From the UHGV virus genome UHGV-1641076: 15,531 nucleotides of DNA. The stretch is one strand, 5' to 3'. The position numbers and the translations under genes are program-made. Of this stretch, positions 3,042 through 15,531 are shown one piece after another. Each line of letters begins with the position of its first letter. The stretch's first letter is position 1. The notes under the pieces are model-generated. The model was not told the DNA's origin and did no database searches. It saw only the letters and a list, made by a program, of their open reading frames with translations. Origin of the DNA: a virus.

Positions 3042-3872
3042 ACCGGACTCCTCCTGCGATCCCTTCTGATACTGTCATCAGCATTACGTCATCCTCCGTC
3101 ATGTCCGCCACATCCGGGGAAGCGGGGATAACTTCATTCCCGTCCGGGCCAAAGCAGACGCCTCCGGCAAGCCCTGCCGCTTTCTGCATCAGCACATCAT
3201 CTTCAGGCTCTTCGTCAGCCTCGCGCCGGTTCAGCAGACTGAAATCCAGCGGATGCATATCCGGATCGCTGAAAAACAGGCTGAGTACGGTGTACGTCAG
3301 CCCGGAAAAGTGCATATCCAGCAGAACATCATGAAAATAATGGGTACTGTAAAAGCGGTGCCAGTCGGCATACTCCGTGGATGACATCCCGGCAAGCATG
3401 GCGCGCCAGTCGGGTCGCCCCATCTCACGCGCCAGTTTCAGGGCAAAACTCAGCTCACCGTCGAACACTTTCCCGCAGAAACAGGCTCTGCTGGCCCGGC
3501 GTCATCTGCCTGTTCAGGTGCATCATTCACAACAAACTCAGACATACCGGACAGACGCATTACCACATTTTCAGCCTGAGCAATTGCCTCTGTGGGCCAG
3601 GTGGTAAGCACTTCCTGCTCAATTTGTTTAACGGCTTCATTCATGGACGGCATCTTTGTCTTCTGCGGATGGCTATGCCACAGGGACATCGCCACCAGAA
3701 AAGCACCGGTTCTGACGAGATCTTCCACGCTCACCTGTCGATTGAGACTGGATCCCGCCTGTTCTGCCTGTCGTTTCAGCAGGGCGAGATGCTCAATTCG
3801 CTGCAGGGCTGACAGTTCAGAAAGCGTGACGCTCACACCGTTATATTCAAATGATTCGGTTTTCAGGAACAT
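3034..3872 (-). CDS. G-T: Tail assembly chaperone G-T fusion, made by a programmed -1 ribosomal frameshift (G frame 3450..3872, T frame 3034..3468)
   Basis: Two overlapping minus-strand ORFs of 140 aa (G) and 144 aa (T) in -1 register. The slippery heptamer GGGAAAG is present at 3469..3475 (plus strand reads ctttccc), at the 3' end of G. Confidence 0.85.
3450..3872 (-). CDS. G: Tail assembly chaperone G (140 aa)
   Basis: 140-aa ORF MFLKTESFEYNGVSVTLSELSALQRIEHLALLKRQ..., same length and position as lambda gpG, immediately after V. Confidence 0.9.
   Translation of the reverse strand: MFLKTESFEYNGVSVTLSELSALQRIEHLALLKRQAEQAGSSLNRQVSVEDLVRTGAFLVAMSLWHSHPQKTKMPSMNEAVKQIEQEVLTTWPTEAIAQAENVVMRLSGMSEFVVNDAPEQADDAGPAEPVSAGKCSTVS
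3469..3475 (-). other. Slippery heptanucleotide G GGA AAG for the G to G-T -1 frameshift
   Basis: Exact GGGAAAG on the minus strand, 2 codons before the G stop, where the T frame opens. Confidence 0.8.
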
Positions 3873-3887
3873 CGCTGACTCTCCGGA

Positions 3888-4628
3888 TTAACTGTCGGTG
3901 ACGGTGATTTCTGCAACCGCAGCAAACTCACCATTACCGGATACAACCGGAATGTTGACCTTGCCTGCAGCAACACCTTTCACGGTGATGGTCATACCAC
4001 TGACCGACACGGTGGCTTTTGTTTTATCCGCAGACACCGCACGGAAGCTCTTGTCGGTTGCGCCTTCCGGCTGGAATGCCACGGTCAGCGTGGTGCTCTG
4101 CCCTTTCACCACCGAAGTGCTGGCAGGCGTCACGGTCATGCCGGTTGCCACTGTTACCGTGCTGCGATCTTCTGCCATCGACGGACGTCCCACATTGGTG
4201 ACTTTCACCGTGCGGGTGATCACTTCCTTCGCCGTCACCGCCTTACCGATACTGCTGACCCAGCCGCGGAACACATCGACCGTGCCGTTCGGGAAGCGGA
4301 TTTTATAGGCACGGGTATCCCCTTCATTAAACCACGCCAGCAGCGCCTGCTGCCCCTGCTCTCCGGGCATCCACGCCAGCGTGAAGCTGGTATCTCCGGC
4401 AGATTTCTGCCCCTGCCCGGTCGCAGTCCAGTCCGCATCTTCATCATCGAGATAGCTGTCGTCATAGGACTCAGCGGTCAGTTCGCCGGGCGTCAGGTCT
4501 TTAACTTTAGCCAGACGCGACCAGTCAACGTCTGAAAGCGGGTTCGCATAAGGGTCACCGCTCCCGTTATAAACCCACAGGGTGGTCCCGGCCCCTTTCA
4601 CCGGTGCCAGAGGATTTGGTGTTGGCAT
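3888..4628 (-). CDS. V: Major tail tube protein V (246 aa) with a C-terminal Ig-like domain
   Basis: The track ORF is 256 aa. The likely start is the internal ATG at 4628 ([20 protein letters not shown]...), which gives 246 aa and the lambda-like 7-nt gap after U. The C-terminal ~90 aa are Thr/Val/Ser-rich and beta-like, consistent with the Ig-like domain of lambda gpV. Confidence 0.9.
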
Positions 4629-12860: not shown

Positions 12861-13380
12861 TCAGCAACCCCGGTATCAGTTCATCCAGCGCGGCTGCTTT
12901 GTTCATGGCTTTGATGATATCCCGTTTCAGGAAATCAACATGTCGGTTTTCCAGTTCCGGAAAACGCCGCTGCACCGACAGGGGGATCCCGTCGAGAATA
13001 CTGGCAATTTCACCTGCGATCCGCGACAACACGAAAGTACAGAATGCGGTTTCCACCACTTCAGCGGAGTCTCTGGCATTCTTCAGTTCCTGTGCGTCGG
13101 CCTGCGCACGCGTAAGTCGATGGCGTTCGTACTCAATAGTTCCTGGCTGGAGATCTGCCTCGCTGGCCTGCCGCAGTTCTTCAACCTCCCGGCGCAGCTT
13201 TTCGTTCTCAATTTCAGCATCCCTTTCGGCATACCATTTTATGACGGCGGCAGAGTCATAAAGCACCTCATTACCCTTGCCACCGCCTCGCAGAACGGGC
13301 ATTCCCTGTTCCTGCCAGTTCTGAATGGTACGGATACTCGCACCGAAAATGTCAGCCAGCTGCTTTTTGTTGACTTCCAT
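12835..13380 (-). CDS. Nu1: Terminase small subunit Nu1 (181 aa)
   Basis: 181-aa ORF MEVNKKQLADIFGASIRTIQNWQEQGMPVLRGGGKGNEVLYD... with an N-terminal winged-HTH DNA-binding region. It is the first gene after cos, as in lambda. Confidence 0.93.
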
Positions 13381-13557
13381 TGTTCATTCCACGGCCAAAA
13401 ACAGAGAAAGGAAACGACAAAGGCCCAAAAGTTCGTTTTCAGCACCTGTCGTTTCCTTTCTTTTCAGGGGGTATTTTAAATAAAAACATTAAGTTACGAC
13501 AAAGAAGAACGGAAACGCCTTAAACCGGAAAATTTTCATAAATAGCGAAAACCCGCG
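13381..13557 (-). promoter_or_regulatory. cosB terminase-binding region: three Nu1-binding R elements (approx R1 13403..13420, R2 13445..13460, R3 13504..13519) and an AT-rich IHF-type site (approx 13461..13503)
   Basis: Three copies of the GGAAACG / CGTTTCC core (R2 inverted relative to R1 and R3), with lambda-like spacing between cosN and Nu1. The reverse complement of this stretch matches my recall of the lambda left end, with a few substitutions. Confidence 0.75.
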
Positions 13558-13569
13558 AGGTCGCCGCCC
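13558..13569 (-). other. cosN: the 12-nt cohesive-end sequence GGGCGGCGACCT (reverse complement of plus-strand aggtcgccgccc)
   Basis: Exact match to the lambda cohesive end. It is flanked by ...GTTACG on the lysis side and CGCGGGTTTTCGCTATTTATGAAAATTTTCC on the Nu1 side. Confidence 0.9.
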
Positions 13570-13822
13570 CGTAACGGCCCGGATCGCCGGAAAGGACCCG
13601 CAAAAATGATAATGGTTATCATTTTCAATGTAGTCCAGTTTCTTCCACCATCGCACCGGACAGGCGACTATGAGGGGACAACGCCGCGCTCCGTTAACGC
13701 GGTAAACCCCGGTGTGTATCGTTTTTGATTATCCCCGCACACTCGCGCAGAGGAGTCTCCCTGTCGGGCTGCGGTCTCTGTTAATGAGGGAATACAGCGA
13801 CGATACGGCGCATCAACAAAAC

Positions 13823-14296
13823 TTATTTCAGGCACTGAGTGCGGATATAGTCCTGTGCCCCTTCCAGTTGCTTGTGCATCGTCATCAGCCGCTCTCTGAG
13901 GGTGAAATAATCCCGTGTAACGGTGTCTGCCAGTTGGGGGCCGGTTGCATTATCCACGCCGGAGGTGGTGGGGGCTTCACGCACGGAGCCTGGACAGGTG
14001 GCGTTGATCCGCAGGCGCTTACGACCAGCGGCAACATCAGCGCGCAGAGTTTCATTTTCAGCTCTCGCATCGGATAATTCCCTCGAGTATTTTGCATCGA
14101 GCGCAGCAACATCGCGCTGGCGCACCTGCATATCAGTAATGGTTGCGTTCGCCAGCTTCAGTTCACTGGCTTTGTTATCGCGCTGCGCTTTGTAGGTAAT
14201 CGCGTTATCACGGTAATGGTCTGTTGCCATCCACAGCGCACCACAGGCCACCAGCAGAATAACGATAAACGCGGAAAGCATTCGGTTTATGTTCAC
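13823..14296 (-). CDS. Rz: Rz i-spanin (inner-membrane spanin subunit); start is either the GTG at 14296 (157 aa) or the ATG at 14281 (152 aa)
   Basis: N-terminal TMD ([16 protein letters not shown]) followed by ...[16 protein letters not shown]...[24 protein letters not shown]..., clearly similar to lambda Rz. The GTG at 14296 overlaps the stop of the upstream small ORF (GTGA), suggesting translational coupling. Confidence 0.88.
13885..14070 (-). CDS. Rz1: Rz1 o-spanin (outer-membrane lipoprotein), embedded in the +1 frame of Rz (about 61 aa)
   Basis: Embedded [64 protein letters not shown]. It has a lipobox (LVVSAC, or VSAC) and a proline-rich stretch, and resembles lambda Rz1. The start is assigned to the internal ATG at 14070. 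Confidence 0.85.
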
Positions 14297-14424
14297 CCCA
14301 GCAACCCCGACGAAGACAACATCATCCAGGCCATGGAAAGAAAAAGAGCAACCAGCATTAGTGAAAATGAAATGCCGACAATTACACAGAGGATCTTCGC
14401 CAGCGTTATGAGTTTGTCTGACAT
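14293..14424 (-). CDS. Small hydrophobic protein (43 aa, one predicted TMD), function unknown
   Basis: ATG at 14424 preceded by a strong Shine-Dalgarno (AAGGGAGGA, 6-nt spacer). Product [43 protein letters not shown]: a short positively charged N-terminus, then about 25 hydrophobic residues. The stop overlaps the Rz GTG start. Confidence 0.6.
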
Positions 14425-14438
14425 GCTTAATCCTCCCT

Positions 14439-14621
14439 TCACGATTTCAACGCAATGACCAGTTTTGCCAGCCCATACAGCATCGGGGACACAGCAACAC
14501 CGACCGCCACCCACTTAATGGCAAAAGCCAGTGCTCTGCTGATGTCATCAGTTACAGGCGCTTTCAGTTCAAGGCCATTTTTCATAGTCAACCTCAACAG
14601 AATTCGTTTATACTTCGCCAT
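14439..14621 (-). CDS. Small membrane protein (60 aa from the ATG at 14621, or 48 aa from the ATG at 14585), function unknown
   Basis: Product [60 protein letters not shown]. The second ATG has a GAGG 6 nt upstream. There is one Gly/Ala-rich hydrophobic segment. Its stop codon TGA lies inside the Shine-Dalgarno of the next small gene. The track's upstream start at 14654 is a GTG inside the terminator hairpin and is unlikely. Confidence 0.55.
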
Positions 14622-14654
14622 GTTCTCCCTTGCCTTACTCAAGGTCAGAAACAC

Positions 14655-14697
14655 AAAACCCCGCTTGGTGCCAACAAACGGGGTTTTTACTTTTATT
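14655..14697. terminator. Intrinsic-terminator-like hairpin, potentially bidirectional, between the endolysin gene and the small ORFs
   Basis: Stem AAAACCCCG (14655..14663) paired with CGGGGTTTT (14679..14687), with a loop containing the palindrome TTGGTGCCAA. On the plus strand it is followed by TTTTTACTTTTATT; on the minus strand by UUUUGUGUUU. Confidence 0.6.
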
Positions 14698-14777
14698 CAC
14701 TTACGTTTCGCCAGTTCGCAGGATTTCGTGTTATCCGCCCGCGTGGCCATACCTTATTTTTCAGCAAAATATTCTGC

Positions 14778-15311
14778 TTATCTGTCGATTCCCCAGCACG
14801 CCAGCGCGCTCTCCTGGTCACGACGGGATACCTGACCATAACAGTTATTTGAGCGGATACGGCAGTCTCTGCCACCGTCCTTAATCCACCAGCGAATCGC
14901 CTCACACGCTCCCCTGCGGTCACCAGCATTCAGCCGCTTATAAAACGTCGACGGGAAACACTTACCGGGGCCAATGTTATAGGGACAGAATGACGCTATA
15001 CCCGCTTTCTGTGGTTCGGTCAGTGGAACTTTAATATTGCGCTCCACCCATGCCAGCGCCTTATCCCGTTCAATGGCATTAACCTGGTCGCATTTTTCCT
15101 TCGACAGTTTCATGCCCGGAATAACAGGTTTACCATCCACCATTGTGGCACCGCGGCAGATGGTCCAGATACCCGCACCATCACGGTATGCCGTTGTGTG
15201 GTTACCTTCTTTTTCATCCAGAAACTGGTCGAGAATATCAGGCGCAGGCGCACCGATGGCAATCAACGCCAGAACGGCAGCCGACAGGCCATATTTGATT
15301 TTGGTGTTCAT
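14778..15311 (-). CDS. R: SAR endolysin, T4-lysozyme-like (GH24) muramidase, 177 aa
   Basis: The N-terminus MNTKIKYGLSAAVLALIAIGAPAP is a weakly hydrophobic Gly/Ala-rich signal-anchor-release type segment. It is followed by EGNHTTAYRDGAGIWT, i.e. the E-x8-D-x5-T catalytic triad spacing of T4 lysozyme. The gene sits upstream of Rz/Rz1. Confidence 0.85.
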   Translation of the reverse strand: MNTKIKYGLSAAVLALIAIGAPAPDILDQFLDEKEGNHTTAYRDGAGIWTICRGATMVDGKPVIPGMKLSKEKCDQVNAIERDKALAWVERNIKVPLTEPQKAGIASFCPYNIGPGKCFPSTFYKRLNAGDRRGACEAIRWWIKDGGRDCRIRSNNCYGQVSRRDQESALACWGIDR

Positions 15312-15367
15312 GGATATTTATCAGGATTTATCGGTTCCGAATCCCTGGATATGTTAAATCTTCAGCC

Positions 15368-15394
15368 CGCCAGCGGTAGGACACTGGCGTTTTT
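15368..15394 (+). terminator. Plus-strand-oriented terminator-like hairpin in the non-coding stretch between the endolysin and IS1
   Basis: Stem CGCCAG (15368..15373) paired with CTGGCG (15384..15389), a 10-nt loop, then TTTTT (15390..15394). On the minus strand it is preceded by an A-tract instead, so it is oriented for plus-strand transcripts. Confidence 0.4.
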
Positions 15395-15476
15395 CCTGAT
15401 GGCTGAAATATATCTGACAATTTCAGTAGAGGATTAACCATGCATAACGATCAACATAATTATGATTTATGCCTGC

Positions 15477-15531
15477 GGTGATGCTGCCAACTTACTGATT
15501 TAGTGTATGATGGTGTTTTTGAGGTGCTCCA
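15477..15531 (+). mobile_element. IS1 insertion sequence, left terminal inverted repeat and first about 55 bp; the element continues beyond the window
   Basis: GGTGATGCTGCCAACTTACTGATTTAGTGTATGATGGTGTTTTTGAGGTGCTCCA matches my recall of the IS1 left end (terminal IR GGTGATGCTGCCAACTTACTGAT, followed by the lead-in to insA). insA would start just past the window edge on the plus strand. Confidence 0.85.

Follow-up and report, generated by a model that had tools for sequence, protein, structure and literature searches.

Two separable small inner-membrane protein genes between the endolysin and spanin genes of a Stx-phage-like prophage

Two small open reading frames (ORFs), ORF1 and ORF2, occupy the interval between the endolysin gene R and the spanin genes Rz/Rz1 in a 15,531-nt stretch of the virus genome UHGV-1641076 (the window), where all of these genes lie on the minus strand. 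Our analysis indicates that ORF1 and ORF2 are genuine, independent and horizontally exchanged genes for small inner-membrane proteins in the late operon of a lambdoid Escherichia coli prophage resembling the Shiga toxin (Stx) phages. As judged by sequence comparison, both code for protein and are under purifying selection, and we predict with considerable confidence that they are real, expressed genes. They are two separable cassettes and not an obligate pair. As to function, we tentatively prefer the reading that both are accessory inner-membrane peptides, expressed late, which modulate the membrane steps of lysis.

A first-pass annotation of the window had described two small genes, each with a Shine-Dalgarno site and one transmembrane domain (TMD), tightly packed between an R gene of the signal-arrest-release (SAR) type and Rz. 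The gene layout and the RefSeq annotation bore this description out. ORF1 (14439-14621; start ATG at 14621, stop at 14439-14441) encodes a 60-aa protein with a basic N-terminal domain and a weakly hydrophobic C-terminal helix. ORF2 (14293-14424; start ATG at 14424, stop at 14293-14295) encodes a 43-aa protein with a single strongly hydrophobic membrane segment, predicted to insert with its N-terminus in the cytoplasm (N-in). Each protein has one hydrophobic segment, and the best 19-residue Kyte-Doolittle mean was 2.89 for ORF2 versus 1.88 for ORF1, the latter value equal to that of the SAR segment of R. Within the ORF1 segment Lys36 and Lys53 are conserved; the C-terminal ends read ...VIALKS in ORF1 and ...SSSGLLG in ORF2. 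An AF2 model of ORF1, built with an alignment, was weak and simple (pLDDT 67), with helices at residues 2-15 and 22-59.

Stop and start codons follow each other closely in this region, and a Shine-Dalgarno site precedes each ORF. The coupling of the ORF1 stop to the Shine-Dalgarno site of ORF2, noted in the first pass, was confirmed: the TGA runs directly into the site (TGAAGGGAGGAttaagcATG), and the spacing to the start is TGAAGGGAGGA-6 nt-ATG. The overlap of the ORF2 stop with the Rz start held in part. The stop does overlap a GTG at 14296 (GTGA), a possible Rz start, but RefSeq, in which Rz carries the label "lysis protein", places the start at ATG 14281, 11 nt downstream. From the sequence we favor the GTG, though it is not proven, because the resulting N-terminus MNINR... 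restores a basic residue before the membrane segment, as in the Rz protein of phage 933W (MNR...). For ORF1, alternative starts exist at GTG 14654 (71 aa) and at the internal ATG of Met13 (48 aa).

The coding status of both ORFs could be examined through their divergence. The ORF1 family showed a ratio of nonsynonymous to synonymous substitution rates (dN/dS) of 0.25 at near-saturated synonymous divergence (pS 0.63). Five different synonymous codons encode Leu8 of ORF1 across lineages, and therefore the 12 residues before Met13 are translated. Between the two clades of ORF2, dN/dS was 0.275. The differences are conservative hydrophobic exchanges; one serine codon switches from TCT to AGC, and one codon is added in frame. 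The start codons and Shine-Dalgarno sites of both ORFs were kept across differing contexts. RefSeq lists both as hypothetical proteins (ORF1, WP_001151823.1; ORF2, WP_001280932.1), and both matched PHROG families of unknown function over their full length: ORF1 matched phrog_1115 (E 2.6e-42, residues 1-60) and ORF2 matched phrog_4906 (E 2.1e-23, residues 1-43). Of 5426 complete E. coli genomes, 1036 matched the segment from the hairpin upstream of ORF1 through ORF2 with a coverage of 80% or more, and 2113 contained part of it; the complete phage genomes PhiR5_2 and PhiR12_1 to 5 carry the R-ORF1-ORF2-Rz block.

Searches of Pfam, NCBIfam (E up to 5) and PADLOC gave no match for either ORF, the sole Pfam line being DUF3930 at E 0.08, below its cut-off. 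Profile searches of the PDB at E up to 1 also returned nothing for them. An exhaustive search of 1.84 billion representative sequences with the ORF1 family profile recovered only 26 clusters at 50% identity, all of them small, similar proteins except for one weak match to a 1149-aa protein, and gave no link to any named family. Homology to a characterized non-lysis family would have spoken against a lysis role; none was found in the family or PDB searches.

On the opposite strand, open frames run antisense to ORF2 (plus strand 14216-14458, 80 aa) and ORF1 (14455-14835, 126 aa), and they are open in the phiP27-like cassette L089 as well. We rejected these frames as genes, as they run through the variable hairpin and the neighboring genes and have no conserved starts. 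The similar dN/dS of the antisense frame that shares its wobble positions with the sense frame is an expected artifact, and the simplest explanation for the openness is codon composition, since hydrophobic genes of this kind are poor in Tyr, His and Gln.

Alignment with Stx phages showed how the slot between R and Rz is composed. Homology extended through R and the linker behind it, stopped at 14692 in P13374 and at 14683 in an Stx1 phage, and resumed exactly at the ORF2 ATG (14424). The region of the break holds ant in P13374, 933W, Min27, the Stx1 phage and the related locus L164. With breakpoints at 14692 and at the ORF2 start, and ant between them, the hairpin with ORF1 and ant are therefore alternative, interchangeable fillings of one slot, and ORF2 travels with Rz. 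Members of the ORF1 family were found without ORF2, and hundreds of Stx phages have ORF2 but no ORF1. Nor are the families related to each other: hhalign gave a probability of 0.6% for their relationship, on which we rejected the possibility that ORF1 and ORF2 are paralogues. These observations did not support a reading of the two genes as an obligate pair or a split holin. The statement that the slot between endolysin and Rz is normally empty was correct for the K-12 prophage Qin, which has the same holin, YdfR and R types and an Rz overlapping R directly, but not for 933W-type Stx phages, which routinely hold ant and an ORF2 homologue there.

ORF2 homologues of 43-49 aa, all full length and sited directly before Rz, were detected in 276 phage records, and the family is confined to Escherichia. 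Among the homologues are ORF53 of P13374 and a gene at 27438-27566 of 933W, which is absent from the annotation of the 1999 record AF125520 and corresponds to EDL933_1392 in the resequenced EDL933 genome. EDL933_1392 has been listed as a predicted inner-membrane protein with one TMD, only as a length-matched control (PMC4765031, Additional file 1). Every ORF2 context seen was a lysis cassette. The gene lies directly upstream of Rz in P13374, the Stx1 phage, 933W, Min27 and L164, and directly upstream of a small lipoprotein gene in phiP27-like cassettes of the L089 type. ORF2 is conserved in essentially all 933W-type Stx phages, and it always stands directly before an outer-membrane-disruption gene, which is either Rz/Rz1 or, in the phiP27-like cassettes, the small lipoprotein gene.

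The phiP27-like cassettes (lipoprotein gene at L089 3352-3534, L146 3072-3254 and L145, which is phiP27, 2495-2683) have no Rz/Rz1 and encode a lipoprotein of about 60 aa instead. This protein belongs to phrog_7528 and has a lipobox LVGC and a mature part of about 29 residues with two further Cys. The annotated L32 of phiP27 is apparently in the wrong frame relative to the lipoprotein ORF. The lipoprotein could be an unrecognized outer-membrane component of lysis.

Several loci showed altered forms of the ORF2 region. ORF2 is truncated or frameshifted after about 27 codons in L055, L056, L059, L061, L062 and L067, and about 0.95 kb is inserted between the ORF2 stop and the first Rz codons in L064 and L065. 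In a rearranged locus common in E. coli prophages (L033, L039 and L149, which is phiSTEC1589-Stx1c), ORF1 codons 23-60 are copied after ORF2. This copy is joined at GGGGTGA, the same junction as that between ORF2 and Rz, and might give a 40-aa product from the GTG. Gene callers extend the ORF of the rearranged locus through the out-of-frame ORF2, which yields "proteins" of 71-90 aa assigned to phrog_3246 (P0196-P0225). Fusions of ORF2 to the ORF1 C-terminus (P0213, P0218 and P0234) were considered as Rosetta-stone evidence and rejected, being products of local duplication or rearrangement combined with out-of-frame calling.

The ORF1 family is broader in range, with homologues in Escherichia, Salmonella, Klebsiella and Serratia. 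Its most conserved part is an N-terminal stretch ending in -x-AP; the helix has conserved basic or polar positions and a C-terminus of either ...LKS or ...RWW. We found the family in 12 distinct genomic contexts, of which 8 were lysis cassettes and 4 were tail regions. In 7 of the 8 lysis contexts the gene lies at most two genes before an outer-membrane-disruption gene.

One lysis context is that of the window, with the order R-ORF1-ORF2-Rz and a SAR lysozyme. The annotation had proposed looking for the pair beside SAR endolysins in other prophages, and this order was indeed present in all 80 IMG/VR loci found with ORF1, some with a shortened ORF2 and a few with extra DNA before Rz. The pair also occurs beside a GH108 endolysin, in the L089-type cassette, where a holin_8 protein, a holin with three TMDs and the GH108 endolysin are followed by ORF1 and ORF2 before the small lipoprotein gene, with no Rz. 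In phiSTEC1575-Stx2k, which has an M15 endolysin, a 57-aa relative precedes the phiP27-like lipoprotein gene. The other lysis contexts are that of L085; a Salmonella cassette in which an N6/N4 DNA methylase gene stands between the ORF1 relative and Rz; a cassette with a lambda-S-type holin; the GC-rich phage L154, whose SAR endolysin gene is preceded by two ORF1-like paralogues, a pinholin-like gene and two further genes for one-TMD proteins; and a Salmonella remnant in which the ORF1 relative abuts Rz. The tail contexts lie between spike and baseplate genes in Klebsiella and Serratia, after tail-fiber genes at a prophage end, in two different prophage types, and before tail genes.

A terminator-like RNA hairpin at 14655-14687 on the minus strand, preceded by an A-run and followed by a T-run, was the only such site in the region from 13300 to 15531. 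Its folding energy was -18.9 kcal/mol (z -2.5). The hairpin was present 25-75 nt upstream of ORF1-family genes in all 52 unique upstream sequences and in 11 of the 12 contexts; in the twelfth it is disrupted by an inserted inverted repeat. Folding of the alignment gave 10 pairs. Compensatory double changes were seen at 2 of these, one example being AU to GC in Serratia. The outer stem is constant, and the inner stem varies by lineage with its pairing kept. With runs on both flanks the hairpin looks bidirectional as a terminator. Rfam gave no hit; the hairpin matched the rimP leader only below threshold, scoring 25.6 bits where the cut-off is 47 (E 0.47), and this was rejected as chance.

No promoter-like site was found on the coding strand between the hairpin and ORF1. 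At its other end, the ORF1-family gene runs right up to the start codon that follows; in the RWW class this junction reads ...TGGTGGTGA-N-ATG. With this abutting end and no promoter of its own, the ORF1 cassette is therefore constructed for a place within an operon. In gene order the relatives match the Q-dependent late region of Stx-type phages, which is transcribed by Q-antiterminated polymerase. As no promoter separates the hairpin from ORF1, late read-through would be the only way in which both genes are expressed. The terminator-like hairpin and the abutting stop together form an unusual signature for a gene family that moves between lysis and tail modules of enterobacterial prophages.

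Hairpins also occur elsewhere around family members. In L154, a GC-rich metagenomic phage, three near-identical hairpins of 35-40 nt (within 3437-4420) separate five small genes with one or two TMDs, which sit between the major capsid gene and the SAR endolysin gene; they encode the two ORF1-like paralogues, the pinholin-like protein and proteins of 51 and 32 aa. We considered and dropped a reading of these hairpins as integron attC sites: they are too short, attC core sites are not present in them, and no integrase gene was called in the available part of the contig. A second hairpin follows the gene in L161. In the Salmonella remnant L162 (2940-3000), the place of the hairpin and of the first ORF1-like codons is taken by a perfect inverted repeat of 48 nt (GATTGCTGACAAAGTCC...GGACTTTGTCAGCAATC). 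It looks like a small inserted palindromic element, in a prophage remnant that is widespread in Salmonella, beside Rz.

The first-pass annotation regarded ORF1 and ORF2 as the only candidates for the timing function in the window, which did not survive comparison with relatives, as IS1 and the end of the window simply remove the holin from view. The terminal 55 bases (15477-15531, plus strand), which we take to be an IS1 terminal repeat, occur at 83,600 places in E. coli genomes and matched at least 5000 plasmids, and homology to uropathogenic E. coli (UPEC) 26-1 ends at 15476. The element has inserted after 12 codons of a gene on the plus strand (start at 15441) that is intact in UPEC 26-1 (WP_000551290.1). 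UPEC 26-1, whose prophage segment is 100% identical, continues beyond this point with the intact gene, a YdfR pseudogene and, about 1.3 kb upstream of R, a class II holin gene, and PhiR5_2, with its R-ORF1-ORF2-Rz block, has holin S directly before R. The window shows no holin because the IS1 copy and the window end separate R from the holin region. On this comparison ORF1 and ORF2 do not appear to be the holin, which would lie beyond the IS1 insertion. Holin or pinholin identity was rejected because of the position of both ORFs downstream of R, the class II or S-type holin found upstream in relatives, and the build of each ORF, which has a single hydrophobic segment and neither two TMDs nor a charged C-terminal tail. 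The annotated lack of resemblance to known holins was upheld, with no holin, pinholin or releasin family matched in Pfam, PHROG, NCBIfam, PADLOC or the PDB; the Pfam holin families, including the S21 pinholin PF04971, gave no match at E up to 1.

Taken together, the recurrent placement before an outer-membrane-disruption gene, the lack of an own promoter and the fit to the operon are the reasons for favoring lysis modulators. According to this model, ORF1 and ORF2 would be made only when antiterminated late transcription passes the hairpin, together with holin, endolysin and spanins, and in lysogens the hairpin would insulate ORF1, ORF2 and Rz/Rz1 from stray transcription. Both peptides are expected to insert N-in with almost no periplasmic part. 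ORF1 would then most likely tune holin triggering or the energization of the membrane, and ORF2 the spanin step. Neither should be required for lysis, because K-12 Qin couples the same R type directly to the spanin. A more specific and rather unlikely form of the model treats ORF1 and its hairpin as a self-insulated mobile cassette for a late membrane peptide, and ORF2 as a dedicated inner-membrane partner in the spanin step. The hairpin would keep a depolarizing, membrane-active ORF1 silent in lysogens, and Q-antiterminated expression of ORF1 would lower membrane energization, sharpening pinholin triggering and the SAR endolysin's release.

Several observations weigh against lysis modulation. 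Four of the ORF1-family contexts lie in baseplate, tail-fiber or other tail-gene regions, and the contexts are not independent samples, as linked blocks spread by recombination. Both genes are dispensable: they are absent from K-12 Qin, ant replaces ORF1 in Stx phages, and a methylase gene shares the slot in Salmonella. Some prophages hold frameshifted or truncated copies of ORF2, so the cassette is not always intact. Neither ORF resembles any holin, antiholin, releasin or spanin family, and literature searches by sequence, accession, PHROG identifier and topic found no functional description of them.

The most serious alternative, which we consider possible and less probable than lysis modulation, is that ORF1 and ORF2 are passengers of the moron kind, mobile genes for membrane proteins unrelated to lysis, with roles such as phage exclusion or envelope modification. 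Such cassettes would land in permissive junctions of the late operon, of which the gap between R and Rz is one. The mosaic breakpoints flank the cassettes exactly, with ant replacing the hairpin and ORF1; phiSTEC1575-Stx2k shares the hairpin and the lipoprotein with L089, but its 57-aa relative replaces both ORF1 and ORF2. Unrelated cargo, ant and the N6/N4 methylase gene, occupies the slot, cassettes with the same R type exist without both genes, and ORF1 relatives at the spike-baseplate junction and behind tail-fiber genes at a prophage end also agree with passenger status. However, the terminator-like hairpin upstream and the lack of a detected promoter are unlike a classical moron. The lysis cassette is the context of every ORF2 and of most of the ORF1 family, nearly always close before an outer-membrane-disruption gene, and in L154 the two ORF1-like paralogues precede a pinholin-like gene. 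A lysis-control gene or a membrane moron, the choice offered by the first-pass annotation, are still the two leading readings. A quite improbable alternative makes ORF1 a toxic membrane peptide silenced by a cis-antisense RNA, in the manner of type I toxin-antitoxin systems or of P22 sar. The RNA would start on the plus strand in the first ORF1 codons, cross the ribosome-binding site and end at the hairpin (about 14621-14700, some 75-80 nt). A plus-strand promoter-like site, TAGTCA-18-TATACT, does lie at 14585-14614 with its -10 element at the Lys-Tyr-Lys codons; in the equivalent place Klebsiella and Serratia have TATAAT, and the RWW class has TGGACA-18-TATACT. In the contexts read, the A-run before the hairpin becomes a T-run when transcribed in the antisense direction. 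The first 24 ORF1 codons show less synonymous divergence (pS 0.42) than the remainder (0.71), and the predicted plus-strand RNA consists of a single-stranded 5' part and a terminator hairpin (-21.2 kcal/mol, z -3.1). The small size of ORF1 (at most 60 aa) and the basic residues inside its hydrophobic helix would also suit a toxin. However, synonymous recoding produced equally good promoter matches in 5-53% of recodings, leaving no extra signal, and the site is poor in L154, the most divergent member. Neither a sense promoter for a toxin mRNA nor an Rfam match was found.

Non-functional proteins, serving as spacers that preserve translational coupling into Rz or persisting as decaying remnants, seem still less probable. 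Among close relatives ORF2 shows little codon-position bias, its first 26 codons being near-invariant in DNA with equal variation at the three positions; truncated, frameshifted and duplicated variants are common; and the antisense frame that shares the wobble positions has a dN/dS of 0.295. Set against this, the sense frames show dN/dS of 0.25-0.28 across divergent clades, with conservative replacements, the Ser codon-family switch and in-frame indels, and keep their starts and Shine-Dalgarno sites in different contexts; an open antisense frame is expected for a hydrophobic gene, and this one traverses the variable hairpin. Least probable of all is that the pair supplies the timing itself, whether by forming a split or two-component holin, by acting like a pinholin or by serving the SAR endolysin in the manner of a releasin, a reading that context has largely refuted. 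The ORF1 segment is as weakly hydrophobic as the SAR segment, ORF1 may have a dual start at Met1 and Met13, and one-TMD proteins, including ORF1-like ones, surround the pinholin-like gene upstream of the SAR endolysin gene in L154. The Mu releasin gene also lies a few genes after a SAR endolysin gene (PMC9239132). But relatives carry an ordinary holin gene upstream, no match to holin families or to DUF2730 was obtained at E up to 1, and the Mu releasin is acidic with its N-terminus outside the cytoplasm (N-out) and its C-terminus inside (C-in), whereas ORF1 is basic and N-in. The two genes also occur separately, and Qin and Stx phages manage without ORF1. A releasin role specific for SAR endolysins, as the annotation had suggested, is likewise unlikely, since the pair also accompanies the soluble GH108 endolysin and holins of the large-hole type, and ORF1 relatives occur in tail modules. 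The R gene of 933W was itself cloned and expressed without genes of the ORF1 or ORF2 type (PMC9239132).

The sequences of ORF1 and ORF2 are already catalogued, only as hypothetical proteins, and present evidence establishes no new lysis mechanism. Each of the two could turn out to modulate lysis timing in a new way or to represent a novel type of passenger in late operons, and the finding would be ordinary if both proved to be neutral passengers. Shiga toxin leaves the cell by phage-mediated lysis, and the 933W-type cassette has been treated as S, R, (ant) and Rz/Rz1. If the self-insulated cassette model were true, both genes would determine when and how completely the cell lyses, and with it the timing and extent of Shiga toxin release.

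The neighboring genes are typical of a lysis cassette, all on the minus strand. R (14778-15311) encodes a SAR-type phage lysozyme of 177 aa (PF00959, E 2.8e-25; phrog_7 endolysin, E 1.5e-63), called lysozyme by RefSeq in UPEC 26-1, and its N-terminal segment LSAAVLALIAIGAPAP is Gly/Ala-rich and weakly hydrophobic (Kyte-Doolittle mean 1.88). The Rz i-spanin gene (13823-14296, from the GTG at 14296 or the ATG at 14281) matched PF03245 (E 7e-47) and phrog_13 (E 4.3e-73). The Rz1 o-spanin gene is embedded in it (about 13885-14070) and encodes a protein with the lipobox LVVSAC, whose mature part is rich in proline. Further 3' of Rz lies the gene for the small terminase subunit. The 81-nt linker 3' of R (14697-14777) contains the conserved motif GCAGAATATTTTGCTGAAAAAT and a 17-codon mini-ORF (14697-14750), and is homologous to the sequence upstream of ant in Stx phages. 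The motif recurs with a short ORF start after R in the window and in 933W (L147 1147-1235) and after the lipoprotein gene in L089 (3541-3570), and looks like a recombination linker between late-region modules. In the variant P0123 the mini-ORF reads through into ORF1.

Among known systems, the closest in setting are the accessory lysis proteins, such as the antiholins lambda S107 and T4 RI and the releasin gp25 of Mu, which are likewise small, membrane-anchored, encoded in lysis cassettes, expressed late and non-enzymatic. As in the window, the gp25 gene comes shortly after one for a SAR endolysin, at a distance of a few genes; gp25 (DUF2730/PF10805) has 99 aa, an N-terminal TMD in N-out/C-in orientation and an acidic cytoplasmic domain of about 70 aa (PMC9239132). 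None of these accessory proteins shows a sequence relation to either ORF (Pfam, E up to 1), and gp25 differs from ORF1 in its opposite topology and charge and from ORF2, which has no soluble domain. ORF1 and ORF2 also occur with non-SAR endolysins. They differ from spanins in having neither a periplasmic domain nor a lipobox, and the true Rz/Rz1 follow at 13823-14296. ORF1 resembles type I toxins such as TisB and Hok in being at most 60 aa long and in its helix with conserved basic residues. The size class of these toxins (hydrophobic, below about 60 aa) fits both ORF1 (60 aa) and ORF2 (43 aa), with one hydrophobic helix each. The layout of ORF1, with a candidate antisense promoter within the first codons and a bidirectional terminator just before the ribosome-binding site, is like that of P22 sar, the antisense RNA that controls ant. 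However, the candidate promoter of ORF1 is no better than its protein sequence predicts, and there is no similarity to a toxin family and no match to an RNA family. Classical morons, in the sense of Juhala and Hendrix, lie between a promoter of their own and a terminator, the former upstream and the latter downstream, and the prophage expresses them. In contrast, ORF1 and ORF2 have no detectable promoter, the hairpin stands upstream, and the genes are fitted stop to start into the operon. They share with morons and other cargo genes (933W ant, bor and HK97 gp15) their optional presence, sharp mosaic breakpoints (14692 and 14424), interchangeability and relatives in tail regions.

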